Shown here: positions 3,648-23,317 of the stretch, piece after piece | Layout of the letters: each line of letters starts with the position of its first letter | How positions within the stretch are numbered: position 1 is the stretch's first letter | NCBI GenBank assembly: GCA_963823335.1 | Contig: CAWGLD010000003.1 | Location: 96,001-160,000 of the forward strand | Source of the DNA: an uncultured delta proteobacterium | Lineage (GTDB): Bacteria > Desulfobacterota > Desulfobacteria > Desulfobacterales > B30-G6 | DNA length: 64,000 nucleotides | Direction: 5' to 3' | Notes under the pieces: model-generated | The model's database searches: none | What the model was told of the DNA's origin: nothing | Seen by the model: only the letters and a program-made list of their open reading frames with translations | Translations under genes and position numbers: made by a program

Positions 3648-3650
3648 TTT

Positions 3651-9262: not shown

Positions 9263-9275
9263 TGAATTCGTAAAG

Positions 9276-9434
9276 ATGAACGTCCAACATCGAACGCTTA
9301 ACATCGAACATCGAATGAAAAAGAATATTGAACCCACGGGGAATGCGCTCGCTGCTGCTGTTCAATACCGACGTCTGTTTCTTCATCTTTCAAATTCAGC
9401 ATTCGATGTTGGACGTTCGATGTTCGATGTTCAT
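9276..9434. repeat. Inverted pair of heptamer tandem arrays (AACATCG/AACGTCC ... CGATGTT/GGACGTT)
   Basis: Arms at 9276-9317 and 9400-9434 are approximate reverse complements; a related single arm lies at 45613-45654. Confidence 0.85.
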
Positions 9435-9458
9435 TCTTTTTTCAGCACTGGTGGGTTA

Positions 9459-10403
9459 TTGTATCGACAAGATAGGATTGGGCGCAGGATCGTCTTTTTG
9501 CTGGCGATGACCCTGCTTCCCATTTTTGCCAATTTATCCTCTGCGGAAACAACCGTTAGCATAGATGCGGATATGCAGTTTCAGTATGCGGAACAGCTGT
9601 ATTCCCAGAAAAAATATATGATTGCCGTCATCGAATACGAACGGTTTGTCTACCTGTTTCCAGGGGATGAGCGTGTGTCTGAATCCAGATATCAAATGGG
9701 CATGGCCTACTACTCAGAAAGGCGGTATATAGAGGCCATCCAGTCTTTCAGTGCTTTGATGGAGACAGAAGATGTGGGGCTGGCCTATCATTCCCGGGCT
9801 TTCTTCATGACCGCGGAGAGTCAGTTGAGGCTGGGGCGGCGCTCATCAGCGCTGACAACCCTTTACAACCTTGTGACTTTCTCAAAGGATACGGATGTGC
9901 AGGACGAGGCCAATTATCGTATCGGCTGGATTTTCCTCGAAACGGCTGACTGGGAAAAAGCCCGAACCTATTTTCAAGAGATCAGCGATCGGAATCATGT
10001 AAAATACCGCCTGGCCGATCTGCTCAGAGGTCTTGAGAGTGCCGGCGACATCCATCACAAAAGCCCGGGCATGGCCGGTGCCCTGGCCATCCTTCCCGGA
10101 GGAGGTTATCTCTACTGCAACCGGCCCCGGGATGCCCTGATCTCCTTTCTGTTGAACGGCGGCCTCATCTATGCTGCTTATGAAGCCTTTGACAATGAGA
10201 TGTACGCCCTCGGCGGCGTTATCTCTTTTGTGGAAATCGGGTTTTATTCCGGCAGTATCTACGGTTCCATCTCCAGCGCCCACAAATACAACCGGGATCA
10301 GGACAGGCGGTTTATCGATGGTCTCAAGCAAAACCTGAAGATCAACCTGTCTTCACGGCCCGAAAACAAGGGGCTCGAACTGTCGCTTCGGTATTGTTTT
10401 TAA
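9459..10403 (+). CDS. Exported tetratricopeptide-repeat protein (BamD/YfiO-like) with C-terminal hydrophobic segment
   Basis: TPR-like helices (QFQYAEQLY, YQMGMAYY, YRIGWIFL); the ORF start at 9276 runs through the heptamer repeat, so the real start is probably TTG 9459 or later. Confidence 0.7.
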   Translation: MYRQDRIGRRIVFLLAMTLLPIFANLSSAETTVSIDADMQFQYAEQLYSQKKYMIAVIEYERFVYLFPGDERVSESRYQMGMAYYSERRYIEAIQSFSALMETEDVGLAYHSRAFFMTAESQLRLGRRSSALTTLYNLVTFSKDTDVQDEANYRIGWIFLETADWEKARTYFQEISDRNHVKYRLADLLRGLESAGDIHHKSPGMAGALAILPGGGYLYCNRPRDALISFLLNGGLIYAAYEAFDNEMYALGGVISFVEIGFYSGSIYGSISSAHKYNRDQDRRFIDGLKQNLKINLSSRPENKGLELSLRYCF

Positions 10404-10612
10404 TTGCCGAGGACACGCAGACAGTCCTGGGGCAGGCGGTGGGTACCTTTGTCTTCCAGACTCACTTCCACCAGGGCCTCTGGGTCGTTGATTGCGGTGT
10501 CCGGATCCGTGATGATGCCGTGGCAGCCGATATAATCGTCCATGTAGCTTTCCCAGCCTTCATCATCGGATTTACGGAAGACTTCCACGTGCTGACCCCT
10601 TCGAAATATCAT
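10400..10612 (-). CDS. Small hypothetical protein (SH3/KOW-like beta fold possible)
   Basis: 70-aa ORF with AAGGAG Shine-Dalgarno upstream. Confidence 0.65.
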   Translation of the reverse strand: MIFRRGQHVEVFRKSDDEGWESYMDDYIGCHGIITDPDTAINDPEALVEVSLEDKGTHRLPQDCLRVLGN

Positions 10613-10642
10613 TGGCGGTCTCCTTGATACAATTCCTTCTAG

Positions 10643-10718
10643 TTGAACCGAAAAAGCGAGCGCATTCCCCGTAGGTTCTGCCGTTCGGCAGTGCTTCGCA
10701 TGCTGCGAGGTTCTTCAA
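10643..10718. mobile_element. Palindromic mini-element family A, short form
   Basis: Near-identical to 29171-29245 and 45531-45604 and to parts of 60310-60475. Confidence 0.85.
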
Positions 10719-10736
10719 AAACCCTGTTTCATCAAG

Positions 10737-12893
10737 TCAGATGTGTGAAACGGGCATGCCGGTTTGAGTGCCCGTTTTTCGGGCGCACATTTTACAAAGT
10801 GTCTGCACAGATGCTACCTGCCCGGTTGTTTTAAACCTGTTACCGATATAATCCAGATACTTGGCAGGGCCGACCACGGCGCCACACGAACTGCAGAGGA
10901 TCAGTTCCTGGCGGTTCAAGACAGTACCGCAGAGCGAGAGAATCCTTTCACCATCTTTGTCCTCTATCTGCATGGCGTCGTTGGGGCAGTTTTCCGCGCA
11001 GGCCCCGCAGGCGATACAGCGTTCCTGGGTCAACCTGAAATCTGTTTTTACAGGATGATCAAAGTCATAGTAGCCCATCTGCAGTGCATCGATTTTCATC
11101 TTGTCCCGGCAGACACTTACACAATCCCCACATCGCCGGCAGATATCACAGCGAAGGCATCTGCGGGCCTCCTCCCTGGCCACGCTCTCGGAATAGCCCA
11201 ATTCGACCTGCTGATAGGTGGTACGCCGTCTTTCGATATTCAACAGTGGCATTTCAGGTCGTTTCAGGATCATTTTCGTGGTGGCAGGGACCTCGATAAA
11301 ATCGGTATTTGCACGGCGAACCGGTACCGGCGGCATCTTCGGCTGTGGTAAGCCTGAAAGGTAGCGGTCGATAGCATTGGCTGCCCGTTTCCCGCCACCA
11401 ATGGCTTCGATGACCGTGGCCGGGCCGCTTACAGCATCACCCACGGCAAAAATGTCGGGCTGAGACGTGGTCATGTTGGCCATATTGACATGAATGGTGC
11501 CGCGGCGGGTCCATTCAATTTCACCAAGTGATTCCATACAGTCCCGGTCTACATACTGTCCAATGGCAGGGATGATCACATCGGCTTCGATATCGTGGTC
11601 ACTCCCTTCAACGGGTGTGGGGTACATCCTGTCGCTGTCCTTTTTTTTAACCAGTTTGGCCCGAATGCAGCGCAGGGTGTTGATCCTGTCGCCCTCACCC
11701 ATGATTTCCACTGGAATGGTCAGCAATGCCAGGTGGACACCTTCTTCCTCGGCCTGCTCCACTTCCTCCTCATCTGCGGGCATTTCCCGGCGTGTCCGCC
11801 GGTAGGCGATGGTCACCTCCTTGCATCCGAGCCTCAGGCAGGTTCGGGCCGCATCGATGGCAACATTACCCCCGCCGATGATCACGGCTTTCTTGCCGGG
11901 GGCGTGCCGATGGCCCATGGCTACGTTTTTGAGCAGATCGATGGCGTCTATGACCTGGGGGAACGTATTCTCTCCGGGGATGTTCAGTTTGAAAGCTTTG
12001 TGAGCACCGATGGCAAAGAGGAAAGCCGAAAAATCCTCCTTTTTCAAATCTTCGAAGGACACATCATGCCCAAAACGGGTATTATATACAAATTCGACCC
12101 CCAGGTCTTCGATCATGGCAACTTCCCTGTCAATCACCTCTCGGGGGAGTCTGTAACGCGGTATTCCCACCATGGTCATGCCACCGGCCATGGACAATGC
12201 CTCGAGCACTCTCACACTGTAGCCTTTGAGCGCCAGATAGTAGGCGGCACTCATGCCGCCGGGGCCGGCACCGATGATACAGACCTTTTGATGTTTGTCC
12301 GGCGCCTTTTCAGGGTTTTGGTACTGCCCGTCAGACAGGGCTTTCTCTGCCGCGAATGCTTTAAGAAATTTGATGGAGACCGGCGTATCGATGCGGCCCC
12401 GCACGCACATGAATTCGCAGGGTCGCGTGCACACCAGGCCACACACCCAGGGGAAGGGATTGTCCTTGCGTATGACCTCTATAGCCTCTGCATCTCTGCC
12501 CATGCCGATCAGGGTGACATATGTCGGCACGTCAATTCCTGCCGGGCAGGCCATTTGGCAGGGTGCCGGGGTAAGCTTGATGCAATCCCCGGTGGCGCAG
12601 TTACGGGTCTTGATATGACTTTGGAATATCTCGGCGTGTTTTTCCAGTGTGGTGCCGATCTTGTTTTTGATCTCGATACCCACCGGATCCGCCCTGTTTT
12701 GATCCAGTTCATCCAGGCGGCTGTTGACTGCCGGTATGTGGTCACGGCCTGCCATGCCCCAGGCAACTTCCCGTAGCAAATTCAATATATCTTCCAGGAT
12801 ACGACGGGTCCTGGGTTCTTTGACACTACCGGAGTCAAGGGATGCTTTTATCTCTATTATGGTGCCGTGCACGGGGCAGGCTTTTGCACTCAT
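10737..12893 (-). CDS. GltD/SudA/NfnB-like NAD(P)H-dependent Fe-S flavoprotein with extra C-terminal 2[4Fe-4S] domain
   Basis: PCQMACP...CGLVCTRPCE Fe-S motif, GAGPGG (FAD), GGGNVAID with YRR (NADPH), CDICRRCGDC and CIACGACAENCP. Confidence 0.88.
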   Translation of the reverse strand: MSAKACPVHGTIIEIKASLDSGSVKEPRTRRILEDILNLLREVAWGMAGRDHIPAVNSRLDELDQNRADPVGIEIKNKIGTTLEKHAEIFQSHIKTRNCATGDCIKLTPAPCQMACPAGIDVPTYVTLIGMGRDAEAIEVIRKDNPFPWVCGLVCTRPCEFMCVRGRIDTPVSIKFLKAFAAEKALSDGQYQNPEKAPDKHQKVCIIGAGPGGMSAAYYLALKGYSVRVLEALSMAGGMTMVGIPRYRLPREVIDREVAMIEDLGVEFVYNTRFGHDVSFEDLKKEDFSAFLFAIGAHKAFKLNIPGENTFPQVIDAIDLLKNVAMGHRHAPGKKAVIIGGGNVAIDAARTCLRLGCKEVTIAYRRTRREMPADEEEVEQAEEEGVHLALLTIPVEIMGEGDRINTLRCIRAKLVKKKDSDRMYPTPVEGSDHDIEADVIIPAIGQYVDRDCMESLGEIEWTRRGTIHVNMANMTTSQPDIFAVGDAVSGPATVIEAIGGGKRAANAIDRYLSGLPQPKMPPVPVRRANTDFIEVPATTKMILKRPEMPLLNIERRRTTYQQVELGYSESVAREEARRCLRCDICRRCGDCVSVCRDKMKIDALQMGYYDFDHPVKTDFRLTQERCIACGACAENCPNDAMQIEDKDGERILSLCGTVLNRQELILCSSCGAVVGPAKYLDYIGNRFKTTGQVASVQTLCKMCARKTGTQTGMPVSHI

Positions 12894-12905
12894 TGTTTCA
12901 CCTAT

Positions 12906-13694
12906 TTATGTCACCGGTTTGTTTCCATACATTTTTGCAAGCTTGGGCGCAGTCAATCTCAGATTTTTCCGGTAGTAGAGTTTGCTGCAGGTCGGGCAGT
13001 GCCGGTGTTCTTCTTTTTCCTCTGGATGTTGATCGTCAACATGTTTGACGTGTTCCAGGAATTTTGTGGTGGTATACAATTTGCCACAGATCTGACAAGG
13101 CTCGAGTGTGTGTCTACCCACGATTTCATCCCTGACCATAACCGTTCTTATGTTGCCATCGTCTTCATACCGGATGGCTTTGGTGGGGCAGACGTTGGTG
13201 CAGGTCAGACAGCCAATGCATTCGTCCGTTCCTGATGGACTGACATAGCTTCGTCCCTCTGTTTTGATCATTTTCAGCGCTTTTGCCCCGATGATTTCAG
13301 AGCAAACCCGGATACAGAGCCTGCAGCGGATACATCCGTCGGGTATGATTCCTGTTGTCAAGCCGAATTCCCGGCCGACCTTATGGATGGCTTCGGAATG
13401 GGGTGCCAGTTTCAAGAGGTCTCCGATGGCGGTATTTCTCATCTGGTGCACCATGGCACTTTCCGTGGTGATTTGCAGACCTTGCACTACCTTGATGGCG
13501 CATGAGAGCCTGGTGCGTATGGGTTTGTCCTTTTCTCTTACCTCCACGACGCAAAGCTTGCATGCTGCTGCCGGTGTGAGGGAGTGATGGAAGCAGAGAT
13601 GTGGCACCCGGATGCCATTGTCACTGAGCACGAGCAGGAGCCGTTTCCCTTCTTCAGCCTTGTGTTCCACACCGTTGATGATTATTTGAACCAT
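12906..13694 (-). CDS. [2Fe-2S] + 2[4Fe-4S] electron-transfer protein resembling the NuoG/hydrogenase N-terminus
   Basis: Start MVQIIING at 13694; HLC...ACKLC...LSC, CIRCRLCIRVC, CIGCLTCTNVCP and C-terminal CxxC..CxxC; the longer ORF extension overlaps the upstream gene. Confidence 0.85.
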   Translation of the reverse strand: MVQIIINGVEHKAEEGKRLLLVLSDNGIRVPHLCFHHSLTPAAACKLCVVEVREKDKPIRTRLSCAIKVVQGLQITTESAMVHQMRNTAIGDLLKLAPHSEAIHKVGREFGLTTGIIPDGCIRCRLCIRVCSEIIGAKALKMIKTEGRSYVSPSGTDECIGCLTCTNVCPTKAIRYEDDGNIRTVMVRDEIVGRHTLEPCQICGKLYTTTKFLEHVKHVDDQHPEEKEEHRHCPTCSKLYYRKNLRLTAPKLAKMYGNKPVT

Positions 13695-13708
13695 GATGTT
13701 TCCTGGTC

Positions 13709-14230
13709 TTACCCTAACGTGGCCGCGCCCTTGGTGGAGGCCATGGCATGGGCATAGCGTGTGCGTTTCATGGCCGGCATTTTTTCCGTGACATTGAAGG
13801 TGAGACAGTGCGTGGTGCAGACGGTCACACAGGCGGGTTTGAGACCCTGGTCGATCCGATCCATGCAGTAATCGCATTTGACGACTTTTCCCTTTTCCGG
13901 ATTCCATTGCGGGGCGCCCCAGGGACAGGCGGAGATACATGTTTTGCAGCCCACACAGAGATTGTGGTCAACGAAAACAATGCCGTCCTTTTCACGGCGC
14001 TGCATGGCACCGGTGGGGCATGCAGAGACACACCACGGGTTTTCGCAATGAAAACAAGGCATAAAAATAAAGGACGCCCTTGGTTTGCCGTTAAAAAATT
14101 CGGGTCCCACCGTAATGATCTGGCAGGGCCGGGTTTCCGGCGGAAGTGTTTTGTTTATTTTGCACTGAATTTCACATGAATGGCAGCCGATACACTTTTG
14201 CTGGTCTTGCAGTAAAAAGTACTTGCTCAT
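13709..14230 (-). CDS. 4x[4Fe-4S] beta subunit (PsrB/PhsB/DmsB family)
   Basis: CIGCHSCEIQC, CFHCENPWCVSACP, CVGCKTCISACP and KCDYC...PACVTVC. Confidence 0.92.
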   Translation of the reverse strand: MSKYFLLQDQQKCIGCHSCEIQCKINKTLPPETRPCQIITVGPEFFNGKPRASFIFMPCFHCENPWCVSACPTGAMQRREKDGIVFVDHNLCVGCKTCISACPWGAPQWNPEKGKVVKCDYCMDRIDQGLKPACVTVCTTHCLTFNVTEKMPAMKRTRYAHAMASTKGAATLG

Positions 14231-14302
14231 TATTTTCCTCCCTGATCCAAATCGCTTTTCAGGACAATTATATTTTTATGATGGTTCCTGTTTGAGGTGA
14301 TG

Positions 14303-16387
14303 TTATACCGGCGTCACCTTGACGAATGTGTCATGCAATGCCGGGCTGCCGCCGATTGTATCCATCAGACTTTCCTGAAGCAGGGCGTCGCTGACACCTT
14401 TCCGGCAGCTTCGTGACGCGTTGCCGGCTTCATGTCCAAAACCGTGCAGCATGAATACGGTTTCCTGGTGTATCAGATCGGTTGCCTTAACCGTGATTTG
14501 CCCCTTGCCCACACTGGATGTCACTTCCACCTTGTCACCATTGCTGATACCGAGTTCAGCAGCACGCACGTTGTTCATCCAGAGAACATTTTCAGCACAC
14601 AGTTCGTTCAGATAGGGGTTGTTCTGTGTGGACACATGGGTGTGCAGGGCGATGCGACCCACCACGAGCCGGAAACGATCTTGCGGCGGTCTTGGTACAG
14701 GCGTATAGGCAGGGAAAGATTCAAACCCGGCATCCTCTAGGAGGGAAGATTTGAATTCAATCTTTCCAGACGGTGTTTTAAATTTGAGTCCCTCTTTTCG
14801 ATCCCAGAAAATCTGCTTTTTCCCGTATGCCACAAAGCCTTTGGCATTGAAATCCTCTGTTTTGAAGCCAGTACCTTCCAGTTGCCATTCCAGCAGTTCA
14901 TCCATGCTTTGATAGGGGAAAAATTTGTCTGTCCCCAGGCGTTCTGCTATCTGTTTCAGAATCATGGCGCCGTCCCTTGTATCGTAACGGGGTGCAACAG
15001 CCTGTTTGCGCAGAAACATCTGCGGTTTTAAGCCGTTGGCCTGTTGGATGCAGTCGGTTCTTTCGAGATAGGTGGATTCGGGAAGAACAACGTCCGCGTA
15101 CCAGGCGATATCGCTGTAATTGATGTCGATGGCCACGATCAGATCTAGTTTGTCCAGGGCCTTTTTGGTCAGGGTGGCATCCGGAATCGACCCGATCGGG
15201 TCGAAGCGATAGGCGATAAAGGCTTTGATAGGGTAGGGATCCTGATTCAATATGGCTTGCGGAAGCATCTGGCCGACACCATGGTTGGGGTCCGGCAGGG
15301 GAAATTCTTTGGTTCCCACCTTGTCGAATCGAGGCACGTCAATTTTAGGAAACTTCTGCTCGGTGAGCTTCCGGGCTGGCTTCCCGCCTTCTTCACCAGG
15401 GCCTTTCTTGAAGAAAACACCACCTTTGGTTTCAAGACTGCCCATGAGGGCGTTTAATATCAAAATGGAACGTCGGAAATAAATTTCGTTTTGATGACTG
15501 GCGCCACGGTACCCATAATGGAAAACCACCGAGGGTTTCTCTTTGGCAACTTCTCTGGCCAGTTCTCTGATCGCCGAAGCGGAAATGCCGGTTTCGTCCT
15601 GTGCCCATTCAGGGGAGTAGGGGTTGACAAAGTCCTGCAGCTCTTTCAAGCCAACCACCCACCTGTCCACAAAGGCAGCGTCGTAGAGCCTTTCATTCAA
15701 AATGACATGAATCAGGGCATAGTTCAGGGCCAGATCCGTTCCCGGACGTATCATCCAGTAACGATGCGCTTTGGTGGCCGTGACGGTTACCCGGGGATCT
15801 ATGTAGGTCAGCTTGGCACCCTGTTCCAGAGCATACATCAGGTTGTTGACCTCTTTAACAGAAATCGACTCAAAAATATTTCGGCCATACAGGACAATCT
15901 GCTTTGTATTCTTGTAGTCCACGCCCACCTGCCCATCTGCAAAACCGAACAATGAGCGACAGGCCGTATTTACGGACCCTTTGCAGAGCGCATCATGGGT
16001 AAAGTGATTCGGTGATCCGATGGCTTTCAGAAATGTCTTGCTGACATGGGTGGCCAGCTGGGTCCGTTCGCCGAGTACGACACTGTGCCCGCCGTGCTTG
16101 TCAATAATGGATGAAAGTTTTTTGCCTACCATGTCCAGCGCTTCATCCCAGCTTGCTTTGCGCCATTTACCTTCCCCGCGTTTACCCACCCTGATCAACG
16201 GTGACTGCAGCCGCTGGTCATCATAGAGCAGACTGGTACCGGCCGCCCCCCTGGGGCAGAGACTACCTTCCATACCGGCCACATGCGGATTACCCTCTAT
16301 CCAGGTTACCTGCCCATCTTTGACTTTAACTTTGATGGGACAACGAATCGAGCACATAAAGCAGAGACTGTATACCTCTTTTTCCAT
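14303..16387 (-). CDS. Mo/W-bisPGD oxidoreductase catalytic subunit, thiosulfate/polysulfide reductase (PhsA/PsrA)-like, no Tat signal
   Basis: Starts directly at the FS0 motif (CFMCSIRC...LCPRG); Cys ligand in HDALC; PGTDLA and ADVVLPESTYLER motifs; C-terminal molydopterin-binding domain. Confidence 0.88.
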   Translation of the reverse strand: MEKEVYSLCFMCSIRCPIKVKVKDGQVTWIEGNPHVAGMEGSLCPRGAAGTSLLYDDQRLQSPLIRVGKRGEGKWRKASWDEALDMVGKKLSSIIDKHGGHSVVLGERTQLATHVSKTFLKAIGSPNHFTHDALCKGSVNTACRSLFGFADGQVGVDYKNTKQIVLYGRNIFESISVKEVNNLMYALEQGAKLTYIDPRVTVTATKAHRYWMIRPGTDLALNYALIHVILNERLYDAAFVDRWVVGLKELQDFVNPYSPEWAQDETGISASAIRELAREVAKEKPSVVFHYGYRGASHQNEIYFRRSILILNALMGSLETKGGVFFKKGPGEEGGKPARKLTEQKFPKIDVPRFDKVGTKEFPLPDPNHGVGQMLPQAILNQDPYPIKAFIAYRFDPIGSIPDATLTKKALDKLDLIVAIDINYSDIAWYADVVLPESTYLERTDCIQQANGLKPQMFLRKQAVAPRYDTRDGAMILKQIAERLGTDKFFPYQSMDELLEWQLEGTGFKTEDFNAKGFVAYGKKQIFWDRKEGLKFKTPSGKIEFKSSLLEDAGFESFPAYTPVPRPPQDRFRLVVGRIALHTHVSTQNNPYLNELCAENVLWMNNVRAAELGISNGDKVEVTSSVGKGQITVKATDLIHQETVFMLHGFGHEAGNASRSCRKGVSDALLQESLMDTIGGSPALHDTFVKVTPV

Positions 16388-16484: not shown

Positions 16485-16500
16485 AGCAATTATCATACCA
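16485..16500 (-). promoter_or_regulatory. sigma54 (-24/-12) promoter for the molybdoenzyme operon
   Basis: Minus strand reads TGGTAT-GATAA-TTGCT with correct GG-N10-GC spacing, about 100 bp upstream of the ATG at 16387. Confidence 0.7.
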
Positions 16501-16888: not shown

Positions 16889-16904
16889 TGGCATATTGCT
16901 TGCT
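16889..16904 (+). promoter_or_regulatory. sigma54 (-24/-12) promoter for the TauE operon
   Basis: TGGCAT-ATTGC-TTGCT, 80 bp upstream of the ATG at 16984. Confidence 0.75.
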
Positions 16905-16983: not shown

Positions 16984-18129
16984 ATGGCAAAAAAAATTTT
17001 TAGTGTGTTACCGATCCTTTTGATGGTCCTGACGCTTTCAATGCCGTTTGTCACGGCAAATGATGTATTTGCGGACAAGCTGTCAGATGCCATCGCCAAG
17101 ACGCCCCAGGGCAGTGATAAGGGTCAGATCGACCCTGAGGCCCAACCCGGGTTTCTTGGAATACCCGGCGCGCCGAGTATCAACATGATCATCGGTCTGG
17201 TGTGGGCGATCTGGGTGGGGTGGATTTTTTCAACAGTTGGCGCTTTTGGCGGAATCATGGCCGGCGTGGGACATATGACCATCTATGGCCTGGGGGCCTA
17301 TGCAAAAACCTTCAAGGACACGTCGCCGCAAATGAACAAATTCGTCACCGACAGTATCCGTGTATCCAACCAGTGGCTTGTGGGTCTTTCGGCCCTGGTG
17401 TCCAGCGTCAATTATTACCGGCAAAAGCGACTGGTGCCTGCCCTGGGTTTGTTTCTGGGCAGCGGTGCGCTCTTTGCGACACTCCTGGTGGTGTTTACAA
17501 CGGCCGGTAAACTCAAATTTTCCCAGTACCAGGGGTGGTTTGGATTGTGTGTTTTCGTCATCGGCGGTTTTATGATCTACGAAATGTCGCCCAAGGGTCA
17601 GGCTACCAAAAAAGCAGCCGCAGAAGCAGCCAAGGCTTTCGAAGGTACCATCAAAGGCAAAGGCAAGATTGAAGACCAGGGTGTAAAAACGTTGAGCTGG
17701 AGTCTGAAAAAAGTCGAAATCTCTTTTTTCGGTCAGACCTTCAGTTTCAGTCCTATTTGGGCCTTTGTGGGCGGTTTCTTTATCTCGGCCCTGGCGTCAT
17801 TTCTGGGTATCGGCGGTGGGTTTCTTTATGTGCCCTTTTTGACCAGCGTTGTCGGACTTCCCATGTTTGTGGTTGCAGGAACGTCGGCGCTCTCTGTTTT
17901 GATCGGCATGATCTTCGCCATTTTCAACTTTATGGTTTTAAAAGGGGTCATGGTATACTGGCCCATGATCGGCGCCGAGTTGATCGGTATATTTATCGGA
18001 TCCATGATCGGGCCCAGAACGGGTAAATACATCCCGGCCAAGGTCCTGAAGGGCATTTTCATCGCTCTGGCGATCTACATCGGACTTCGCTATACCATGA
18101 GAGGCTTTTTCGGGATCGCCATGCTGTAA
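16984..18129 (+). CDS. TauE/SafE (TSUP) family sulfur-compound transporter with N-terminal extension
   Basis: GAFGGIMAG and FLGIGGGFLYVPFL...AGTS repeats, multiple TMs; strong AGGAGG Shine-Dalgarno. Confidence 0.88.
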   Translation: MAKKIFSVLPILLMVLTLSMPFVTANDVFADKLSDAIAKTPQGSDKGQIDPEAQPGFLGIPGAPSINMIIGLVWAIWVGWIFSTVGAFGGIMAGVGHMTIYGLGAYAKTFKDTSPQMNKFVTDSIRVSNQWLVGLSALVSSVNYYRQKRLVPALGLFLGSGALFATLLVVFTTAGKLKFSQYQGWFGLCVFVIGGFMIYEMSPKGQATKKAAAEAAKAFEGTIKGKGKIEDQGVKTLSWSLKKVEISFFGQTFSFSPIWAFVGGFFISALASFLGIGGGFLYVPFLTSVVGLPMFVVAGTSALSVLIGMIFAIFNFMVLKGVMVYWPMIGAELIGIFIGSMIGPRTGKYIPAKVLKGIFIALAIYIGLRYTMRGFFGIAML

Positions 18130-18284: not shown

Positions 18285-18851
18285 ATGCAGCCTTTTTATG
18301 ACAACTTTCTATATCATGCAGATGGATTTCTAATCGGTTTTTACCGCTTTACCGGCCATCCGTTTCTGGACTATTTGGTGGGAACCATGTGTCTGGCCCT
18401 GTTATGTGTATTGGTGGGGGAAGTAACGGTTTCCCTGGCCATTCGGTTCAACCAGCGCTACATCGATGAAATGGCTCAAGAAATGAATCAGAAAGAAAAA
18501 ATGTCCATGGCAGCCTACCAGGCAGGCGACAAGCCCGGCTACAAGGCGCTGAACAAGCAGGCCACCGATGCGTGGGGCAAGCATTTTTTCACCATGGTCG
18601 GTTATTCGGCCGGCATGTTGTGGCCCATACCCTTTGCACTGGGATGGATGCAAACCCGTTTTCATGGCGTAGATTTTGACCTGGCCTTTCCACTGTCACT
18701 CCTTTTTGGAAAAACAGTCGGCTATCTTTTCACATTCATTCCAATATATATTCTCTCCAGAATTGTTTTTAAATACATGCGCCCATATTTACCATATTTC
18801 AGGGGGGTTCAGAAGAAACTCGACCAATGCGCGTCCAGAAACGCTTCTTGA
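18285..18851 (+). CDS. Hypothetical membrane protein
   Basis: 188-aa ORF with about 3 hydrophobic segments and a soluble coiled segment, in operon position. Confidence 0.75.
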   Translation: MQPFYDNFLYHADGFLIGFYRFTGHPFLDYLVGTMCLALLCVLVGEVTVSLAIRFNQRYIDEMAQEMNQKEKMSMAAYQAGDKPGYKALNKQATDAWGKHFFTMVGYSAGMLWPIPFALGWMQTRFHGVDFDLAFPLSLLFGKTVGYLFTFIPIYILSRIVFKYMRPYLPYFRGVQKKLDQCASRNAS

Positions 18852-18893: not shown

Positions 18894-19020
18894 ATTGTTC
18901 TACAAACCGCGTGCTAAGCACGCGGTTCCGAACCTAAACGTCCGGGGACGTGCCGTCTCCTGATCTTTTACCGCTTTGCGGAAAAATGAAAGCCACCCGT
19001 TTCACGGGTGGTCGTTTACT
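18894..19020 (-). mobile_element. Mini-element family B (IS200/IS605-end-like), diverged copy
   Basis: Homologous to 29626-29759 and 52218-52349. Confidence 0.8.
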
Positions 19021-19030
19021 CGAAAATTCC

Positions 19031-19522
19031 ATGAGAAAAACGCCCTTCATTCAAATCAGATCGATTCTGTTGATTGTCTGGCTGGTCGTAATAATGTTCC
19101 CCGTCCCGGTTGCCGCCACCCAGGGGCACAGCGGTGTCGAAGGGGTGTACGTGCACCAGCTGGCGCATCTTTATTTCATTTTTTCCATGGGAACCCTGAT
19201 TTACTGGATACGCAGACGGGATCTGGTCCGTGAGAAAGGCTGGCGTTACATCCAGTATTCAGCCCTCTTTTTTATTCTGTGGAATATCGATGCATTTGCA
19301 GTGCATTTCCTCGATGAGCAGATCAGCGCCGCGGTGGTGACCAAGCAGGATCTTTTTCATATTCAAATATCCACCGACGAGGGCTTGGAGTGGATCAGAT
19401 ATTTCTATTATCTGGCCAAGCTGGACCATTTGCTCTGTGTTCCTGCCATGATTTTTCTTTATCTTGCACTTAAGAGCCTTCTGAGCGAATCTCCAACGGG
19501 CGATAAAAGGAGCCTGTCGTGA
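19031..19522 (+). CDS. Hypothetical membrane protein, probable accessory of the sensor kinase
   Basis: ATG 19031 (the upstream extension to 18950 lies inside the repeat); about 4 TMs with several His; 4-bp overlap with the kinase. Confidence 0.72.
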   Translation: MRKTPFIQIRSILLIVWLVVIMFPVPVAATQGHSGVEGVYVHQLAHLYFIFSMGTLIYWIRRRDLVREKGWRYIQYSALFFILWNIDAFAVHFLDEQISAAVVTKQDLFHIQISTDEGLEWIRYFYYLAKLDHLLCVPAMIFLYLALKSLLSESPTGDKRSLS

Positions 19523-21039
19523 ATGTGTTTCCTTTTTTACCTGTCGTTCTGGTGGACATGGCCGGTTCTTTTCTGATGATCGTCTTGTCGATAATGTGCG
19601 TTCATCTGTCTCGGAAACTCAGGAGACGTGATACGGGAAACATTTTATGGAACTTTCTTCAGTACGTCAGTTATGCCTTGATGGTGTTCGCTGTTTCCCG
19701 CTCGGCCGGGCACATCCTCAAACAGGTATTGGTTCTGTATTCTTATCAACACATATGGCAGAAAATCAGTCCGTTCAGCGGTGCCATCAATACGTTCACC
19801 TTTATTGTGGTGGGCTCTTTCACGCTGTTTTTTGAAAGAACCTGGAGTATCTATCAGAAAATTGCCGAAGATAAACAGGCCCTGGTGTCCGCTCATGCGG
19901 AGTTGTTGTATCTCAACCAGAAGCTTGAAAAATTAGCTGACATTAGAACCCGGGAACTAGTTCGTTCGGATCAGAAATACCGCCGGATATTTGAGGTATC
20001 AAAGGATACGATCCTGGTAACGAAAAAAGACGGCATGATCCTGAATCTGAATCCCTCGGGATACAAACTGCTAGGTCTTGATGGAAATCGGGAAGATGGA
20101 ACACTGCAGGAGAAGTATTTTCAAGATTGGCTGGCCATGGATGATGCTTGGAAAAGACTTTCTCAGGCCATCGCTGATGAAGGTTTTATCGAAGGTGAAG
20201 AGCTCGATTTGAGGGTCGGTAAGGGGCAATCGAAAAAGGTTCTGCTGAGCGCCAGTGTGGCAGAGGCTTCTATGGAGGATGGGGAGACCATTCATTTTCT
20301 GATAAAGGATATCGAACGGCAGCACCAGATGAAAGAACAAATGATGCAAGCGGACAAACTTGCATCGATCGGTGAACTGTCATCCGGGATCGCCCATGAA
20401 ATAAACAACCCCCTGAATGTGATTCTTGGTTATACCCAGTTGCTGTTGCGTAGCGAAGTCAAAGCGTCCGATCGCCATGCCGATCTCAAAACCATTGAAA
20501 AACACGTCAGAAACTGCAAATCAATTGTAGAGGATTTATTGAGTTTTGCCAGGAAATCGAAAACGAGAAAAGACAGGGTTCATATCGAGAGCATTGTTGA
20601 GAATGTTATTAAGTTTGTCCAGCAGCATTCAAATTTTGAAGACATTAGGATGGAAGGTACCTACGATCGAAACATACCGCCGATGATGCTCGATGAAAAG
20701 AAAATCAAACAGGTTCTGATAAACCTGCTAATGAACGCGATTCACGCGGTGGACCGCAAGGGATGCATACGAATATCCACTGAATTGGACGTGGATTCGA
20801 ACAGGATATTTGTCCAGATTTCCGACGACGGATATGGTATCGAAAAAAATAACATATCGAAGATTTTTGACCCCTTTTTCACGACCAAGCCCACCGGAGA
20901 GGGCACAGGATTGGGGCTGTCGGTGAGCTATGGCATCATCAAGGATCATGGCGGAGATATCCTCGTGGATAGTGAACCGGGAAAAGGTTCGATCTTTACG
21001 ATTGTGCTGCCCATGGAAGGAAAGGATCAAGGGAGATAG
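19519..21039 (+). CDS. Membrane-bound PAS sensor histidine kinase (NtrB-type)
   Basis: H-box AHEINNPL, N-box QVLINLLMNA, DDGYGI, FDPFFTTK and GTGLGL; PAS domain; N-terminal TMs. Confidence 0.95.
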   Translation: MNVFPFLPVVLVDMAGSFLMIVLSIMCVHLSRKLRRRDTGNILWNFLQYVSYALMVFAVSRSAGHILKQVLVLYSYQHIWQKISPFSGAINTFTFIVVGSFTLFFERTWSIYQKIAEDKQALVSAHAELLYLNQKLEKLADIRTRELVRSDQKYRRIFEVSKDTILVTKKDGMILNLNPSGYKLLGLDGNREDGTLQEKYFQDWLAMDDAWKRLSQAIADEGFIEGEELDLRVGKGQSKKVLLSASVAEASMEDGETIHFLIKDIERQHQMKEQMMQADKLASIGELSSGIAHEINNPLNVILGYTQLLLRSEVKASDRHADLKTIEKHVRNCKSIVEDLLSFARKSKTRKDRVHIESIVENVIKFVQQHSNFEDIRMEGTYDRNIPPMMLDEKKIKQVLINLLMNAIHAVDRKGCIRISTELDVDSNRIFVQISDDGYGIEKNNISKIFDPFFTTKPTGEGTGLGLSVSYGIIKDHGGDILVDSEPGKGSIFTIVLPMEGKDQGR

Positions 21040-21042: not shown

Positions 21043-22458
21043 ATGGTTGGAAATATACTTGTAGTAGATGACGAGCTGGACATGCTTGCCCTCCTGAAGA
21101 GGAGTTTGGCACCTGATCTGGACTGTCATGTGGATACTGCATCATCTGCAGACACGGCCCTGGAAATGATCGAAAGTGCATCATACGATCTGATTCTGGT
21201 GGATATTAAAATGCCGGGTATGAGCGGCCTGAAACTTCTTGAAATCATGAAGCGCAAAAGACCCGAACTCACCGCGGTCATGATGACCGCCTATGGCCAT
21301 ATCGATATGGCGGTTGAGGCCATGAAGTTCGGTGCCTATGATTTTATCACCAAGCCCTTTGAGCACGAAACCCTGATCATCCGCTTGCAGAAGGCCCTCG
21401 AGAGGAGTCGCCTTCTCAGGGAAAATCTCAGACTTCAGCAGCAATGCATGGGCGGTGACACGTTTCAGAACCTGGTGGGCAAGAGTCCCAAGATGCAACG
21501 GGTATACGAAACGATTCAGATGGTGTCCAAAACGGATTTGACGGTGCTGATCACCGGTGAATCCGGGACCGGCAAGGATATTGCGGCCAGGGCGGTCCAT
21601 GCCTTGAGCGATCGGTGCAAGCAGCCGTTTGTTGCCGTAAACTGCCCGACAGTCCCGGAAAATATTCTGGAAAGTGAGCTTTTTGGCTACAGAAAGGGTG
21701 CTTTTACCCATGCCACCCAGGATAGAAAAGGAATGTTTCAGACGGCTCAAACCGGAACCATATTTCTCGATGAAATTGGCGATATCAACCCGACCATTCA
21801 AACCAAACTACTTCGCGTACTGCAGGAAAAGGAAATCAAACCGCTCGGCGATTCACGGACCATAAAAGTGGATGTCCGCATTGTCGCTTCCACGAATCAG
21901 CACCTGGAAGAGAAGATCAGAAGAGGGGAGTTCAGAGAGGATTTTTTCTATCGTTTGAATGTACTTCCTATCAAGATGCCGGCACTGAGAGAACACCCGG
22001 AAGATATTCCCCTTATCGCCAGCCATCTTCTGGAAAAGCACTGCCGGAAACTGAAAAAGCCTTTGAGAAAACTGTCACCCGAACTCATCAATATCTTTCG
22101 GACCATGCATTGGGAGGGCAATGTCAGAGAGATGGAAAATCTGATCATGCAGGGCATATTATTTTCCTCCTCCGACGAGATCAAACTCCAGGAAATCGAT
22201 ATCGACGGCGTCATTCAACCAGCTTCGATGGTTACCCACAGTTATAGAGAGCTGTCTTACAAAGAAGCCAAGGAAAAAACGCTGAAGGATTTCAATGATG
22301 CCTATATCGGCAGTATTTTGAAAGAAAGTGATGGTAATGTCACCCAGGCAGCAAAACGATGTGGTATGGAACGGCAAACACTTCAGCAGATTATGAGACG
22401 TTACGGGATCAGGGGTTCGGAGTTTAGAAATGATCCCAATGGCGATCAAATGCCATGA
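21043..22458 (+). CDS. sigma54-dependent response regulator (NtrC family)
   Basis: REC domain (VVDDE, DIKMP, KP), GESGTGKD, ESELFG..KGAFTHA, FLDEIG, FREDFFYRLNV and Fis-type HTH. Confidence 0.95.
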   Translation: MVGNILVVDDELDMLALLKRSLAPDLDCHVDTASSADTALEMIESASYDLILVDIKMPGMSGLKLLEIMKRKRPELTAVMMTAYGHIDMAVEAMKFGAYDFITKPFEHETLIIRLQKALERSRLLRENLRLQQQCMGGDTFQNLVGKSPKMQRVYETIQMVSKTDLTVLITGESGTGKDIAARAVHALSDRCKQPFVAVNCPTVPENILESELFGYRKGAFTHATQDRKGMFQTAQTGTIFLDEIGDINPTIQTKLLRVLQEKEIKPLGDSRTIKVDVRIVASTNQHLEEKIRRGEFREDFFYRLNVLPIKMPALREHPEDIPLIASHLLEKHCRKLKKPLRKLSPELINIFRTMHWEGNVREMENLIMQGILFSSSDEIKLQEIDIDGVIQPASMVTHSYRELSYKEAKEKTLKDFNDAYIGSILKESDGNVTQAAKRCGMERQTLQQIMRRYGIRGSEFRNDPNGDQMP

Positions 22459-22564: not shown

Positions 22565-23317
22565 ATGTCACTCACGCTGCTTTTGGTAGTCATATTTTGT
22601 GCTTCCTTTGTCTTGACCATGGTGGGCCTGGGCGGGGGGCTTGTATTTTCACCCCTGTTTATTCTGTTAGGATTTCCAGTGACAACCGCGGTATCGGCAT
22701 CCCTTTTCTTAAACGGTATTGCCGCACTTTCCGCCGCCGTTACCTACTTTCGTAAAAAGATGGTCGATGTAAAAACGGCTCTCCCTCTACTCGTAACATC
22801 GACCCTTGCGGCGCCGTTCGGCGCAATGCTGACCAACGTCATCAACATCAAGGTTTTTTCCGGAATACTGGCCCTGGTAATATTGCTTGCCGCCATACGC
22901 ATGGTATTTTCCGGAAAAACCGAGACCAAGGAGACGGAAGCAGGTGTAAAGAGCAGGGTCATCGGCGGCGGCGCGATTGGAATTGCCGTGGGGTTCATGG
23001 CCGGGTTGCTGGGTATCGGCGGCGGCGTCTTTATCGTGCCGCTGCTAATATATATGCTCAGGATGCCTGCCAAAACCGCCGCAGCAACGTCTATTTTCAT
23101 TGTCGTATTTTCTTCTTTTTCCGGCTTTGTGACCCATATCTCTCTTGCAGGCACAAACTGGAAATTTATCGTGCTTGCGGCTATTTTTTCATTTGCCGGA
23201 GGGCACTTCGGTTCACGGATCATGTCCGAAAAACTTAAGGGAAGGGGAATTCGTCGAATTTTCGGTATTTTTCTATTCTTGTTTTTTTTAAAATTGATGC
23301 ACAAGGCTCTGCTGTGA
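22565..23317 (+). CDS. TauE/SafE (TSUP) family transporter
   Basis: GLGGGLVFSP and GLLGIGGGVFIVP..AAATS repeats, about 8 TMs. Confidence 0.9.
   Translation: MSLTLLLVVIFCASFVLTMVGLGGGLVFSPLFILLGFPVTTAVSASLFLNGIAALSAAVTYFRKKMVDVKTALPLLVTSTLAAPFGAMLTNVINIKVFSGILALVILLAAIRMVFSGKTETKETEAGVKSRVIGGGAIGIAVGFMAGLLGIGGGVFIVPLLIYMLRMPAKTAAATSIFIVVFSSFSGFVTHISLAGTNWKFIVLAAIFSFAGGHFGSRIMSEKLKGRGIRRIFGIFLFLFFLKLMHKALL

Follow-up and report, generated by a model that had tools for sequence, protein, structure and literature searches.

The window analysed here is a 64,000-nucleotide stretch of DNA from an uncultured delta proteobacterium of the Desulfobacterales. ORF and Pfam analysis placed genes A, B, C and D on the minus strand within 10737..16387. 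All four genes of the cassette described in the initial annotation were confirmed, and a fifth conserved gene, E, was found just beyond its span. The unit continued to position 23317, adding transporter and regulator genes (Table 1).

Table 1. Genes and other features of the locus, with positions in the window.
Feature	Position	Strand	Remarks
E	10400..10612	-	Conserved 70-aa protein, predicted SH3-like beta-barrel
Short interspersed repeat	10644..10718	.	Inserted between D and E; outside the enzyme
D	10737..12893	-	DsrL/NfnB/GltD-like iron-sulfur flavoprotein, 718 aa
C	12906..13694	-	HoxU/NuoG-N/BfuA-like protein, 262 aa
B	13709..14230	-	PhsB/PsrB/DmsB-like subunit, four [4Fe-4S] clusters, 173 aa
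A	14303..16387	-	Tat-less PhsA/PsrA-like Mo/W-bisPGD catalytic subunit, 694 aa
Sigma-54-type -24/-12 promoter-like site, TGGTATGATAATTGCT	16485..16500	-	About 100 bp upstream of A; 2 mismatches
Sigma-54-type promoter-like site, TGGCATATTGCTTGCT	16889..16904	+	About 80 bp upstream of the TauE-like gene; 1 mismatch
Long TauE/SafE (TSUP)-family permease	16984..18129	+	381 aa; Pfam PF01925; divergent from A
orf188	18285..18851	+	Small membrane protein; accompanies the long TauE gene
orf190	18950..19522	+	Small membrane protein with conserved His residues; end overlaps the kinase gene start
PAS/HisKA/HATPase sensor histidine kinase	19519..21039	+	Assigned by domain search
NtrC-type response regulator	21043..22458	+	Receiver, sigma-54 activator and HTH_8 domains
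Short TauE/SafE-family permease	22565..23317	+	Second such permease, 250 aa

A contained the Pfam domains Molybdop_Fe4S4, Molybdopterin and Molydop_binding. Its FS0 cysteine motif comprised residues 9-16 and 44, and Cys135 was aligned to Cys173 of Thermus PsrA, the Mo-ligand position. Against the NCBIfam PhsA profile (NF012032), A scored 626.9 bits, below the curated cut-off of 694; other NCBIfam profiles gave 252.6 (Fdh-alpha, cut-off 666.25), 249.7 (DmsA) and 196.9 bits (ArrA). Comparison with solved structures gave 410 bits for Thermus PsrA, 215 for acetylene hydratase and at most 161 for formate dehydrogenases. In a tree of 146 rows, which did not include the Dissulfuribacter thermophilus protein itself, A fell within a 28-row clade whose members all lacked a Tat leader (support 100). 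The sister of this clade was a 4-row clade with Tat leaders (joint support 99). Three of its four rows scored above the PhsA cut-off (997.8, 1058 and 1008.1), and by sequence this sister group is bona fide PhsA, not formate dehydrogenases. Soluble NAD(P)-linked formate dehydrogenases possess comparable relay modules, and formate dehydrogenase chains were present among the weaker PDB matches of A; it is nonetheless next to impossible that A belongs to the formate dehydrogenases or to some other characterised type of soluble Mo enzyme. The formate dehydrogenase reading was contradicted by the profile scores, the PDB scores, the cysteine at the Mo-ligand position and the tree, and the Psr/Phs-type assignment first given to the catalytic subunit was supported. 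In B, 16 Cys were invariant among 38 sequences; these suffice for four [4Fe-4S] clusters, in agreement with the earlier description of this subunit. Its nearest solved chain was 2vpw_B.

The match of A to NF012032 began at profile position 41 and hence lacks the Tat portion. Because the ORF begins at the first start codon past a stop, it leaves no room for an upstream extension; no Tat-bearing upstream start is possible, and the ATG is preceded by its own GGAGG ribosome-binding site. The best 120 homologues of A were all 684-714 aa long. No hydrophobic segment was found in A-E (maximum Kyte-Doolittle 19-residue mean, 1.36). No NrfD gene occurred near the operon, as the initial annotation had noted for the window; the four NrfD-family matches of the genome were all on contig C1, and the window is on C3. 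With no Tat leader or signal peptide in A, no transmembrane segment in A-E and no anchor gene, the cytoplasmic location proposed earlier was retained.

The mechanical ORF of C (13940..12906) overlapped B, and the true start was the ATG at 13694, preceded by a separate ribosome-binding site. The start was moved, and the cluster motifs of the proposed [2Fe-2S] plus two [4Fe-4S] relay were present: Fer2_4 with ligands C34, C45, C48 and C65, two 4Fe-4S motifs and a C-terminal CxxC...CxxC pair. Over its full length, the nearest solved chain was 9mqx_A. Pfam analysis of D revealed Fer4_20, FAD/NAD(P) and C-terminal dicluster domains. D was organized as an N-terminal extension (with C6, H52, H93, C99 and C104), the Fer4_20 two-cluster domain, FAD site, NADPH site, linker and a two-cluster ferredoxin domain followed by a terminal CxxC...CxxC. 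The NADPH site carried Y364-R365-R366, and YRR was found in 38/38 sequences. According to the available text of PMC7596348, YRR binds the 2'-phosphate in NfnB and is a hallmark of NADP(H)-only DsrL-2 proteins. Because this motif is invariant, the nucleotide of D is probably NADPH, which narrows the NAD(P)H module of GltD/NfnB type recognised initially. The N-terminus of C and D matched successive parts of single chains (PRK12814, NfnA 9bov_A and StnC 8oh5_C), and these fusion matches suggest that C and D function jointly.

A tblastn search detected E in 77 of 140 loci. In relatives its gene comes immediately behind D, and 23 columns were invariant among 27 sequences. Its model showed an SH3-like fold (pLDDT 88.1), and Foldseek gave weak matches to PetP, KOW domains and PsaE. 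We propose that E is a conserved accessory subunit. The repeat between D and E measured 71-77 bp and had 70 genomic copies of at least 60 nt at 90% identity or more; at locus L001 the D-E spacing was just 24 bp. Contigs from four estuary RNA libraries matched the operon with a likeness of at least 95% and spanned the B/C and C/D junctions, and contigs from two runs skipped the repeat (10645-10717). These contigs show the presence of the operon only: cover was even over the whole region, regulators included, and may partly be DNA.

In the 57 related loci whose sequence ran on for 5 kb or more past the end of A, B was present in 57, D in 55 and C in 52. The cassette is syntenic across Desulfobacterales, and A-D co-occurred with TauE across Desulfobacterota, for which a synteny search had been proposed in the initial annotation; the long TauE gene adjoined in 21 of the 38 fully flanked loci. 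The carriers were sulfate reducers and sulfur disproportionators; Desulfosarcina widdelii and D. alkanivorans (loci L023, L026) are among the species with the cassette. Many relatives keep A-B-D without C, and the relay role of C is therefore not obligatory. Other Tat-less PhsAB modules in the phylum were partnered by D alone, by NuoF-GltD fusions or by complex-I-like nuo genes. A NuoF-like FMN/NADH module was fused to D in L123 (1131 aa) and L144, and the A-B module lay immediately ahead of nuo genes in L147 and L154. D was missing from 20/27 Tat-less A-B loci of the 39-58% identity tier. In L123 a rhodanese gene separated A from the TauE pair. D had a paralogue, with 46% identity, in an unrelated methyltransferase cluster.

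Sigma-54-type sites showed no excess over chance in the window as a whole (36 found, 36.5 expected). Upstream of A they occurred in 36/85 related loci, against 1/85 in the antisense control and 0/85 in the inside-gene control. The long TauE permease had five hydrophobic segments, and orf188 had no family match. The orf190 and kinase genes were each found in 35/38 fully flanked loci. Long TauE-type permeases and a sigma-54 two-component system accompany the cassette, together with two small membrane proteins.

PhsABC (Salmonella type, NF012032) and PsrABC (Thermus thermophilus, 2vpw) were the best family and structure matches for A and B, and share with them the FS0 cluster, the Mo-ligand Cys and the four-cluster B subunit. 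A differed in having no Tat leader and a score under the PhsA cut-off. The PhsC/PsrC (NrfD) anchor is absent, so the A-E operon has no quinol link; its electron-input genes encode instead an NADPH flavoprotein, a [2Fe-2S] relay and an SH3-like protein. Like A-B, the PhsAB-like pair of D. thermophilus (available text of PMC13490349) and the Campylobacterota Psr proteins (PMC10045233) are reported as Tat-less, anchor-less and predicted to be cytoplasmic, and Desulfolithobacter PhsAB is described as missing subunit C (available text of PMC9751629). For the Campylobacterota PsrA2, grouping with Aquifex SreA is reported (PMC10045233). The Tat-less PhsAB-like proteins of Desulfobacterota sulfur disproportionators belong to the same Tat-less clade as A and have the TauE and small membrane protein neighbourhood in common with A-B; relatives in the P0130 subclade stand beside nuo genes or alone, unlike the window cassette. 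No electron donor module is named in the available text of PMC13490349, PMC9751629 and PMC10045233, whereas D, C and E are in the operon here. No description of an NADPH module (D, C) with a Tat-less PhsAB was found in the literature. The claim that the system is undescribed therefore stands for the NADPH wiring and fails for the Tat-less, anchor-less PhsAB/PsrAB pair, which was noted in print between 2022 and 2026.

D shared domain order and YRR with DsrL-2, the NADPH:acceptor oxidoreductase of DsrAB (Desulfurella amilsii), and the host has dsrAB in both cases; as far as DsrL-2 is described in the available text of PMC7596348, D differs in being encoded beside a molybdoenzyme and not dsr genes, in about 100 extra conserved N-terminal residues and in the terminal CxxC...CxxC. 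The best solved matches of D were NfnA of NfnABC (Bfu family, 9bov) and StnC of StnABC (8oh5). The N-terminal [2Fe-2S] domain of these chains matches C, so C and D together look like their front two thirds, split. The molybdopterin-like domain of the NfnA/StnC chains is probably catalytically dead, whereas the window has a separate, intact PhsA-like subunit; NuoF-like or NuoE-like partners are absent from it. Archaeal NAD(P)H-dependent sulfur reductases are flavoproteins not known to carry a molybdenum cofactor. The cytoplasmic NAD(P)H polysulfide reductase of Thermotoga maritima, with thiosulfate reductase activity, is placed among their relatives in the available text of PMC9431562; it has the same proposed reaction type and compartment, and is an analogue, not a homologue, of A-E.

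We infer that A-E, the products of a sigma-54-controlled operon, assemble into a single molybdo- (or tungsto-) enzyme that is soluble, resides in the cytoplasm and acts as an NADPH:thiosulfate (or polysulfide) oxidoreductase. Taken jointly, this reading of the sequences seems about evenly poised between right and wrong. Electrons would pass from NADPH to the FAD of DsrL/NfnB-like D, through its [4Fe-4S] clusters, with HoxU-like C as relay, to the four clusters of B and then via the FS0 cluster to the Mo-bisPGD of A. The substrate would be an inorganic sulfur anion imported by the adjoining TauE-family permease; against this uptake role, the TauE family is named for export. Thiosulfate, reduced to sulfite and sulfide, would be the most likely substrate, and polysulfide the second choice. 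The sulfite would be handed on to DsrAB, which is encoded on another contig; dsrA scored above its family cut-off, and the organism could therefore consume sulfite. The standard potentials are about -402 mV for thiosulfate/sulfide plus sulfite and -320 mV for NADPH, so that NADPH-driven thiosulfate reduction is uphill at standard potentials and would need product removal. During thiosulfate disproportionation by D. thermophilus, a Tat-less PhsAB-like pair without PhsC, and TauE with a co-occurring membrane protein, were more abundant (available text of PMC13490349); this proteomic evidence comes from a different subclade, whose identity to A is only about 44%. The P0130 Tat-less subclade holds named proteins from several sulfur disproportionators: Dissulfurimicrobium hydrothermale, Desulfolithobacter sp. 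and Desulfocapsa sulfexigens. Against the substrate assignment, Desulfolithobacter PhsA-1 is described as merely slightly more abundant under thiosulfate disproportionation (PMC9751629), and PsrA, PhsA and SrrA as inseparable by sequence (PMC10100899, PMC12998232), in the available text of these sources.

The same complex could run in reverse: a sulfur compound of reduced or intermediate state, such as sulfite or sulfide/sulfane sulfur, would be oxidised on the cytoplasmic side and NADP+ reduced for biosynthesis or an oxidative disproportionation branch. DsrL-type proteins operate both ways (PMC7596348, available text), cytoplasm-facing sulfite-oxidising Mo enzymes such as SoeA exist (PMC10100899, available text), TauE is annotated as a sulfite exporter, and the position of A-B ahead of nuo genes fits a low-potential donor feeding quinone reduction. 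The reverse direction is unlikely, however: A groups with PhsA, outside the SoeA/bacterial SreA lineage, and in the available texts the YRR/NADPH type of DsrL is tied to the reductive direction (PMC7596348) and the D. thermophilus proteins were up with thiosulfate versus sulfite/H2 (PMC13490349). The architecture might also serve tetrathionate, selenite, arsenate or an organosulfur compound (sulfoxide, sulfonate). The PsrA/PhsA/SrrA lineage includes selenite as well as sulfur reductases, unresolvable by sequence (PMC10100899, available text), D also matched the putative selenate reductase subunit YgfK (345.5 bits, under its cut-off), and TauE-family carriers are named for organosulfonate-related export. 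Such substrates appear improbable given the PhsA sister clade, the sulfur metabolism of the carriers and the L123 rhodanese gene, which points to sulfane-sulfur chemistry.

A flavin-based bifurcating or confurcating enzyme, raised as an option in the initial annotation, would link NADPH and the low-potential thiosulfate couple with ferredoxin, for which E might be the docking site. The nearest solved relatives of D are the NADPH-binding subunits of bifurcating NfnABC (9bov), StnABC (8oh5) and NfnSL (5jca), and that of C is the NuoG-like chain of the electron-bifurcating 'plug' 9mqx (PMC12318220, available text). The NuoF-like fusions of L123 and L144 point the same way, as do the PsaE- and PetP-like fold of E and, as a lead only, its language-model neighbours, which include the ferredoxin-thioredoxin reductase variable chain (score 0.91). 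However, the window version has a single flavin/nucleotide site and no NuoF, NuoE or NfnS partner, and the cluster lacks a ferredoxin gene; DsrL itself is not known to bifurcate, and a Nernst estimate from commonly quoted potentials makes the reaction feasible without bifurcation at low product concentrations. Bifurcation is thus not indicated for the window version, for which we hold it doubtful, and is more plausible in the NuoF-GltD-fusion relatives. It is very unlikely that D is a DsrL-2 serving DsrAB in NADPH-driven sulfite reduction and merely co-regulated, with A-B fed by another carrier. D has the features published as DsrL criteria, DsrL occurrences in Desulfobacteraceae metagenomes are left unexplained in the available text of PMC7596348, many Tat-less A-B pairs do without D, and the D paralogue shows a versatile module. 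Yet across families D shares an operon with A-B and begins within tens of bases of B or C, dsrAB is on a separate contig, and the partner module is exchanged at the same position in relatives (NuoF-GltD fusion, nuo genes), as expected of the electron input of A-B.

The NADPH:thiosulfate (or polysulfide) oxidoreductase proposed for A-E provides a testable candidate for thiosulfate handling in common marine sulfate reducers. If the proposal is true, the electrons would come from NADPH within the cell rather than from the membrane.

ORF listing and translation confirmed, on the minus strand, the set of four genes described in the initial annotation (A to D), and a fifth gene, E, was found behind D. 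The ORF and domain evidence for A to D thus supported the structural observation. From the ATG at 13694, the first residue of C coincided with the start in its relatives. All 16 Cys residues of B were invariant in the alignment of 38 sequences, which is enough for four [4Fe-4S] clusters. In C, a [2Fe-2S] domain of the NuoG-N/HoxU type was accompanied by two [4Fe-4S] motifs and by a CxxC...CxxC pair that is conserved. The gene order was A-B-C-D-E in the window and its nearest relatives, and A-B-D-E-C in most genomes.

Coordinates of the cassette genes, neighboring features of the window, and related loci in this and other genomes
Feature	Sequence	Coordinates	Strand	Description
A	window	16387..14303	minus	694 aa; three Pfam domains, as in Mo-bisPGD catalytic subunits
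B	window	14230..13709	minus	173 aa; DmsB/PsrB-type ferredoxin
C	window	mechanical ORF 13940..12906, overlapping B; ATG 13694	minus	262 aa; own ribosome-binding site
D	window	12893..10737	minus	718 aa; GltD/NfnB-like flavoprotein with extra C-terminal dicluster domain
E	window	10612..10400	minus	70-aa ORF behind repeat; good ribosome-binding site
Repeat copies	window	10644-10718, 29171-29245, 45531-45604, 60310-60378		71-77 bp; internal inverted repeats
orf190	window	18950-19522		several conserved His; 3' end overlaps kinase start; no family match
Flanking genes	window	5497-10403		type II secretion genes (GspD secretin, GspE ATPase with MshEN domain) and TPR protein, on one side of the operon; seem unrelated to it
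Polyketide-synthase-like gene	window	49000-55566		type I, 2188 aa (KS-AT-ACP-KR); FabD-like gene and tyrosine recombinase adjoin
Methyltransferase cluster	G000, contig C7 (L179, L180, L084, L085)	364000-393000		contains a D paralogue
NuoF-like/D-module fusion	L123 (G009)	3843-7238	minus	1131 aa, right after A-B
Rhodanese-domain gene	L123 (G009)	10092-10751		between Tat-less PhsA-like gene and TauE pair
NuoF-like/D-module fusions	L144 (G221)	2200-5265 and 5366-8392	minus	in tandem, after Tat-less PhsAB
A-B with nuo-type genes	L147 (G383)	10988-15952		nuoA/B/C/D/H-type, directly after A-B
A-B with nuo-type genes	L154 (G069)	11061-15711		nuoA/B/C/D/H-type, directly after A-B
Cassette relative	L160 (G206)	4083-10984		genome of the same taxonomic order; CBS-domain gene inserted

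Profile analysis showed that A scored 626.9 bits against the NCBIfam PhsA equivalog (NF012032), below its curated cut-off of 694; the scores against DmsA and ArrA were 249.7 and 196.9 bits. Among solved structures, A matched Thermus PsrA at 410 bits, acetylene hydratase at 215, ArrA at 182, and formate dehydrogenases at 161 or less. The FS0 motif was present (Molybdop_Fe4S4 at residues 2-55), as was a Cys at the Mo-ligand position; Cys135 of A aligned with Cys173 of Thermus PsrA, which we take to be the Mo ligand. PMC10045233 names the corresponding residue for further members of the PsrA/PhsA group.

Searching 1.84 billion cluster representatives with A gave 15405 matches at E <= 0.001. A FastTree phylogeny of 146 rows (the full-length ones among the best 150 representatives, plus the A proteins of the fetched loci) placed A in a clade of 28 rows with support 100, the supports being local values, the root arbitrary and the rows free of named reference sequences. 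The Tat motif occurred in none of the 28 rows, of which 25 began at FS0 and 3 lacked FS0. The sister group consisted of four Tat-bearing rows (joint support 99); three of them exceeded the PhsA cut-off, at 997.8, 1058 and 1008.1 bits, and the fourth scored 655.9. Judged by this tree and the PhsA scores of the sister rows, A is a member of a Tat-less lineage that is sister to bona fide thiosulfate reductase. The Psr/Phs-type assignment made earlier was upheld by the PhsA score, the Thermus PsrA match and the tree. An NAD(P)-linked or FdhF-type formate dehydrogenase was rejected: A reached 252.6 bits against Fdh-alpha (TIGR01591), whose cut-off is 666.25, and the tree grouped it with PhsA. Homologues of A are annotated as 'thiosulfate reductase/polysulfide reductase chain A', the same name as that of periplasmic PhsABC.

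The start of A lay 8 residues ahead of the first FS0 Cys, and the search for an upstream Tat-bearing start found stops that left the frame not extendable. The DNA upstream of A was AT-rich and intergenic, with stops, and GGAGG preceded the ATG. A aligned with the PhsA profile from position 41 onward and not before; it therefore has no counterpart of the Tat portion and lacks the leader typical of PhsA. All of the best 120 of 5717 homologues were 684-714 aa long. No hydrophobic stretch was detected in A to E (maximum Kyte-Doolittle 19-residue mean 1.36), while the permeases adjoining the operon exceeded 2.3. B, the adjacent four-cluster protein of PsrABC/PhsABC-type enzymes, was present, while their NrfD anchor was not: none was encoded in the window, all 4 NrfD-family genes of the genome lay on contig C1 (the window is on C3), and profile scans of the membrane proteins adjoining the operon gave no NrfD match. 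One of the C1 NrfD genes came after the gene of another Mo enzyme, which bears a Tat leader and shares only about 27% identity with A. Start, profile, hydrophobicity and NrfD location all agreed with the claim that Tat peptide and membrane anchor are lacking, and a cytoplasmic, soluble A-E complex, as predicted from these features, appears right in outline.

Pfam analysis of D located Fer4_20 at 103-187, Pyr_redox_2 at 203-500 and Fer4_9 at 585-641. This is the domain order by which a passage of PMC7596348 defines DsrL (a two-cluster domain, FAD with embedded NAD(P), a linker and a C-terminal two-cluster ferredoxin domain), and the Cys ligands were invariant. D also had the YRR motif of the DsrL-2/NfnB NADPH type, with Y364, R365 and R366 invariant in 38/38 aligned D proteins; according to the same source, NfnB uses YRR to hold the NADPH 2'-phosphate, and the motif is the mark of those DsrL-2 enzymes that accept NADP(H) only. 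The proposed GltD/NfnB-like link to NAD(P)H is borne out by this domain order and motif. Additional features of D were a conserved N-terminal extension (C6, H52, H93, C99, C104) and a terminal Cys4 motif. The genome has dsrAB, as expected of a DsrL carrier: dsrA reached 615.8 bits against a cut-off of 392.85 and adjoined a dsrB-like frame. The genomic partnership of DsrL with DsrAB was not found: D lay in a Mo-enzyme operon on C3, and dsrA lay on C1. A passage of PMC7596348 states that DsrL was not found in classical deltaproteobacterial sulfate reducers, and another records occurrences in Desulfobacteraceae metagenomes that it leaves unexplained; no word beginning with 'molybd' occurs in that paper.

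The nearest solved chains to D were NfnA of NfnABC (9bov, 388.8 bits), StnC (8oh5), archaeal NfnA (9n5u) and NfnB/NfnL (4ylf, 5jca), the PDB codes being tied to papers solely through the literature-search listing. C was matched end to end by a 247-aa NuoG-like chain, 9mqx_A. The [2Fe-2S] domain of C (2-94) and residues 110-588 of D corresponded to consecutive parts of 9bov_A, 8oh5_C and the single-chain family PRK12814, and this fusion evidence suggests that C and D act together. The cassette differed from the NfnSL (NfnAB) transhydrogenase in that the NAD-binding FAD/[2Fe-2S] small subunit NfnS/NfnA was not encoded in the cluster; unlike NfnS, C lacked flavin and NAD domains, and its [2Fe-2S] domain was of the NuoG-N/HoxU type. 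It differed from the Bfu family (NfnABC, HydABC) in that the window contained neither a NuoF-like FMN/NAD subunit nor a NuoE-like subunit. Complex prediction of D with B, run without controls, gave a score of 0.00, which weighs neither for nor against their association.

A D paralogue (46% identical) was located in the methyltransferase cluster on C7, together with MttB/MtmB-type methyltransferases, a corrinoid protein, a RACo-type activase and two more Tat-less Mo-bisPGD subunits. This may be a further role of the NADPH module, in the metabolism of methylated amines.

E was found directly after D in 77 of 140 loci by tblastn. Alignment of 27 sequences of E showed 23 invariant columns, and neither of its two Cys was universal across loci. 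The AlphaFold model of E was a small SH3-like barrel (pLDDT 88.1). Foldseek returned nothing at E <= 0.001 and weak generic SH3/KOW/Tudor-like matches, with PetP at E 5e-3, followed by KOW domains and PsaE. In the protein atlas, the first matches of E were its own clusters; next came DUF2862 and, at 0.91, the variable chain of ferredoxin-thioredoxin reductase, a resemblance that is a lead, not evidence. No usable Pfam family was obtained for E or for the small upstream membrane proteins orf188 and orf190, even at lenient thresholds.

The contigs of the RNA libraries showed a depth spike at 10261-10721, with many loose ends within the repeat copy between D and E. No tRNA or credible Rfam family was detected in 10300-10800. 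The repeat had 70 copies genome-wide (at least 60 nt, at least 90% identity), four of them in the window, and was very abundant in the RNA-library contigs with many different flanks; the depth spike is attributed to this multi-copy repeat. The D-E copy was skipped by contigs of two RNA runs and was absent at this place in related strains, and at one related locus (L001) only 24 bp separated D from the next gene.

The search for related loci matched 582 stretches; 548 of them encoded a relative, and the 80 best of these were retained. Almost all of the 80 carried the title Desulfobacterales or unclassified Deltaproteobacteria. Desulfosarcina widdelii and D. alkanivorans were among them with complete genomes, as were one MAG titled Gammaproteobacteria (L017) and one titled Desulfarculaceae (L066). 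Wherever 700 bp or more of flank was available, B adjoined A (77/77 loci). A downstream flank of 5 kb or more was available at 57 loci; all 57 contained B, 55 contained D and 52 contained C. At 38 loci the flanks reached 6 kb or more upstream and 8 kb or more downstream; of these, 35 had the histidine kinase, 35 had orf190, 21 had the long TauE gene and 15 had orf188. These counts bear out the expected synteny of the cassette with TauE in Desulfobacterota. Co-occurrence of the four proposed genes therefore held, and their number was revised to five genes with a dedicated regulon.

In the window, the kinase was followed by an NtrC-type sigma-54 activator and then by a second TauE; orf190 may be a co-sensor. 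The divergent intergenic region contained two sigma-54-type sites, one directed toward A and one toward TauE. The window-wide count of such sites equaled chance, and their weight comes solely from the position of these two sites and from the cross-locus test, in which a site occurred at most 300 bp upstream of A in 36/85 loci, against 1/85 antisense and 0/85 inside the gene. Consensus sigma-70 promoters and terminators across the operon were not above shuffles. The operon was covered by contigs from four estuary RNA libraries (likeness 95% or higher), some of which ran across the B/C and C/D junctions; they attest presence only and are mute on level, strand and induction, and cover was equally flat over the regulators. 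The cassette is structurally real and strongly conserved.

A wider survey of 401 genomes sampled across the phylum detected an A homologue at E <= 1e-80 in 141 genomes (87 of 255 genera), and 60 of these places were fetched for comparison. All 53 homologues with at least 39% identity to A began at FS0 without a Tat leader, and all 7 with 38% or less had RRxFL-type leaders. Among the loci with at least 5 kb downstream, D was present in 17 of 19 at 58% identity or more (full-length C in 4), in 7 of 27 at 39-58% (full-length C in 1), and in none of 7 below 39% (full-length C in 0).

Arrangements were scanned with Pfam in 8 of 10 chosen loci; L119 and L152, both high in GC, were left out because ORF calling gave antisense ORFs there. 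Two loci (L129 and L141) had A-B-D without C. At L123 and L144, A-B was followed by fusion proteins of 1008-1131 aa; each joined NuoF-like FMN/SLBB/NADH-4Fe4S domains to a DsrL/GltD-like module. At L147 and L154, nuoA/B/C/D/H-type genes came directly after A-B, with no NuoEFG genes among the ORFs scanned, which suggests that PhsAB could be an electron module of this complex I. The same order agrees with the gene numbering of Desulfolithobacter dissulfuricans in passages of PMC9751629, in which two Nuo subunits (GF1_30510/30520), reported as detected only under thiosulfate disproportionation, come after PhsA-1/PhsB-1 (GF1_30490/30500). The long TauE and orf188 pair accompanied the Tat-less A-B in every arrangement type. 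At L160, B, D and C were 69%, 63% and 44% identical to those of the window and A only 43%, which hints at exchange of the catalytic subunit inside an otherwise conserved cassette.

A Tat-less A-B core is already in print. Passages of PMC13490349 (2026) describe a PhsAB-like pair in Dissulfuribacter thermophilus, cytoplasmic and lacking both PhsC and a Tat leader, among the most increased proteins in thiosulfate disproportionation, with a TauE protein and a 'transmembrane protein co-occurring with TauE' rising alongside; in these passages the enzyme is called uncharacterised and the donor module is not named. PMC9751629 reports PhsAB without subunit C and calls the PhsAB-like enzyme uncharacterised. 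Campylobacterota have a Tat-less Psr (PMC10045233); by contrast, the PhsAB of Desulfurella is periplasmic and Tat-bearing (PMC6378623). The best 120 matches of a search with P0130, a cluster representative 44% identical to A and from the same Tat-less clade, included named proteins of Dissulfurimicrobium hydrothermale, Desulfolithobacter sp., Desulfurivibrio sp. and Desulfocapsa sulfexigens. D. thermophilus was not listed among these 120, so we infer its link to the clade of A. No description of the NADPH-linked cassette was found in the full-text literature, subscription journals and supplements lying outside the search. The term 'undescribed system' in the initial annotation therefore still applies to the NADPH module and no longer to the A-B core.

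The most economical reading is that the cassette is a cytoplasmic NADPH:thiosulfate (or polysulfide) oxidoreductase, with direction, substrate and complex formation as its conjectural parts. Sulfite released from thiosulfate could be consumed by the organism's DsrA-type enzyme, which is plausible since the dsrA of the genome exceeded the family cut-off. The standard potentials are about -402 mV for the thiosulfate couple and -320 mV for NADPH; by these values, electron transfer from NADPH to thiosulfate is uphill under standard conditions. A Nernst estimate from the same values, at millimolar thiosulfate and micromolar products, shifted the acceptor couple to about -200 mV, so bifurcation is not required. 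Of the outline first proposed, the cytoplasmic, Psr/Phs-type and NAD(P)H-linked character stood, and electron bifurcation stays speculation.

A broader reading takes the Tat-less PhsAB as a portable cytoplasmic redox module for sulfur anions that Desulfobacterota may plug into exchangeable electron modules: an NADPH flavoprotein set, NuoF-GltD fusions, or a complex-I-like Nuo membrane arm in which it may take the place of NuoEFG. In the window form, flavin-based bifurcation or confurcation among NADPH, ferredoxin and the thiosulfate couple, whose potential is very low, would be the joint work of the DsrL-like flavin protein, the SH3-like subunit and the [2Fe-2S] protein. When linked to Nuo, turnover of thiosulfate or sulfite would be directly proton-motive. 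Taken jointly, the portable module, the bifurcating window form and the proton-motive Nuo-linked form make an improbable combination.

Thiosulfate is among the major intermediates of sulfur cycling in sediments, and there is no agreed set of enzymes for its reduction or disproportionation in the marine sulfate reducers that dominate there. The cassette is common, the full A-B-D set being near-universal among the Desulfobacterales loci retrieved, and it is directly testable in cultured strains. The partner-swapping in relatives, above all A-B followed by nuo genes, bears on the electron source of NuoEFG-less complex I. If the cassette is an NADPH:thiosulfate oxidoreductase, the first thiosulfate step would be cytoplasmic and uncoupled from the quinone pool, metagenomes would gain a gene marker separable from the periplasmic PhsABC now annotated alike, and a partner would be identified for the DsrL-like proteins in sulfate reducers thought to be without DsrL.
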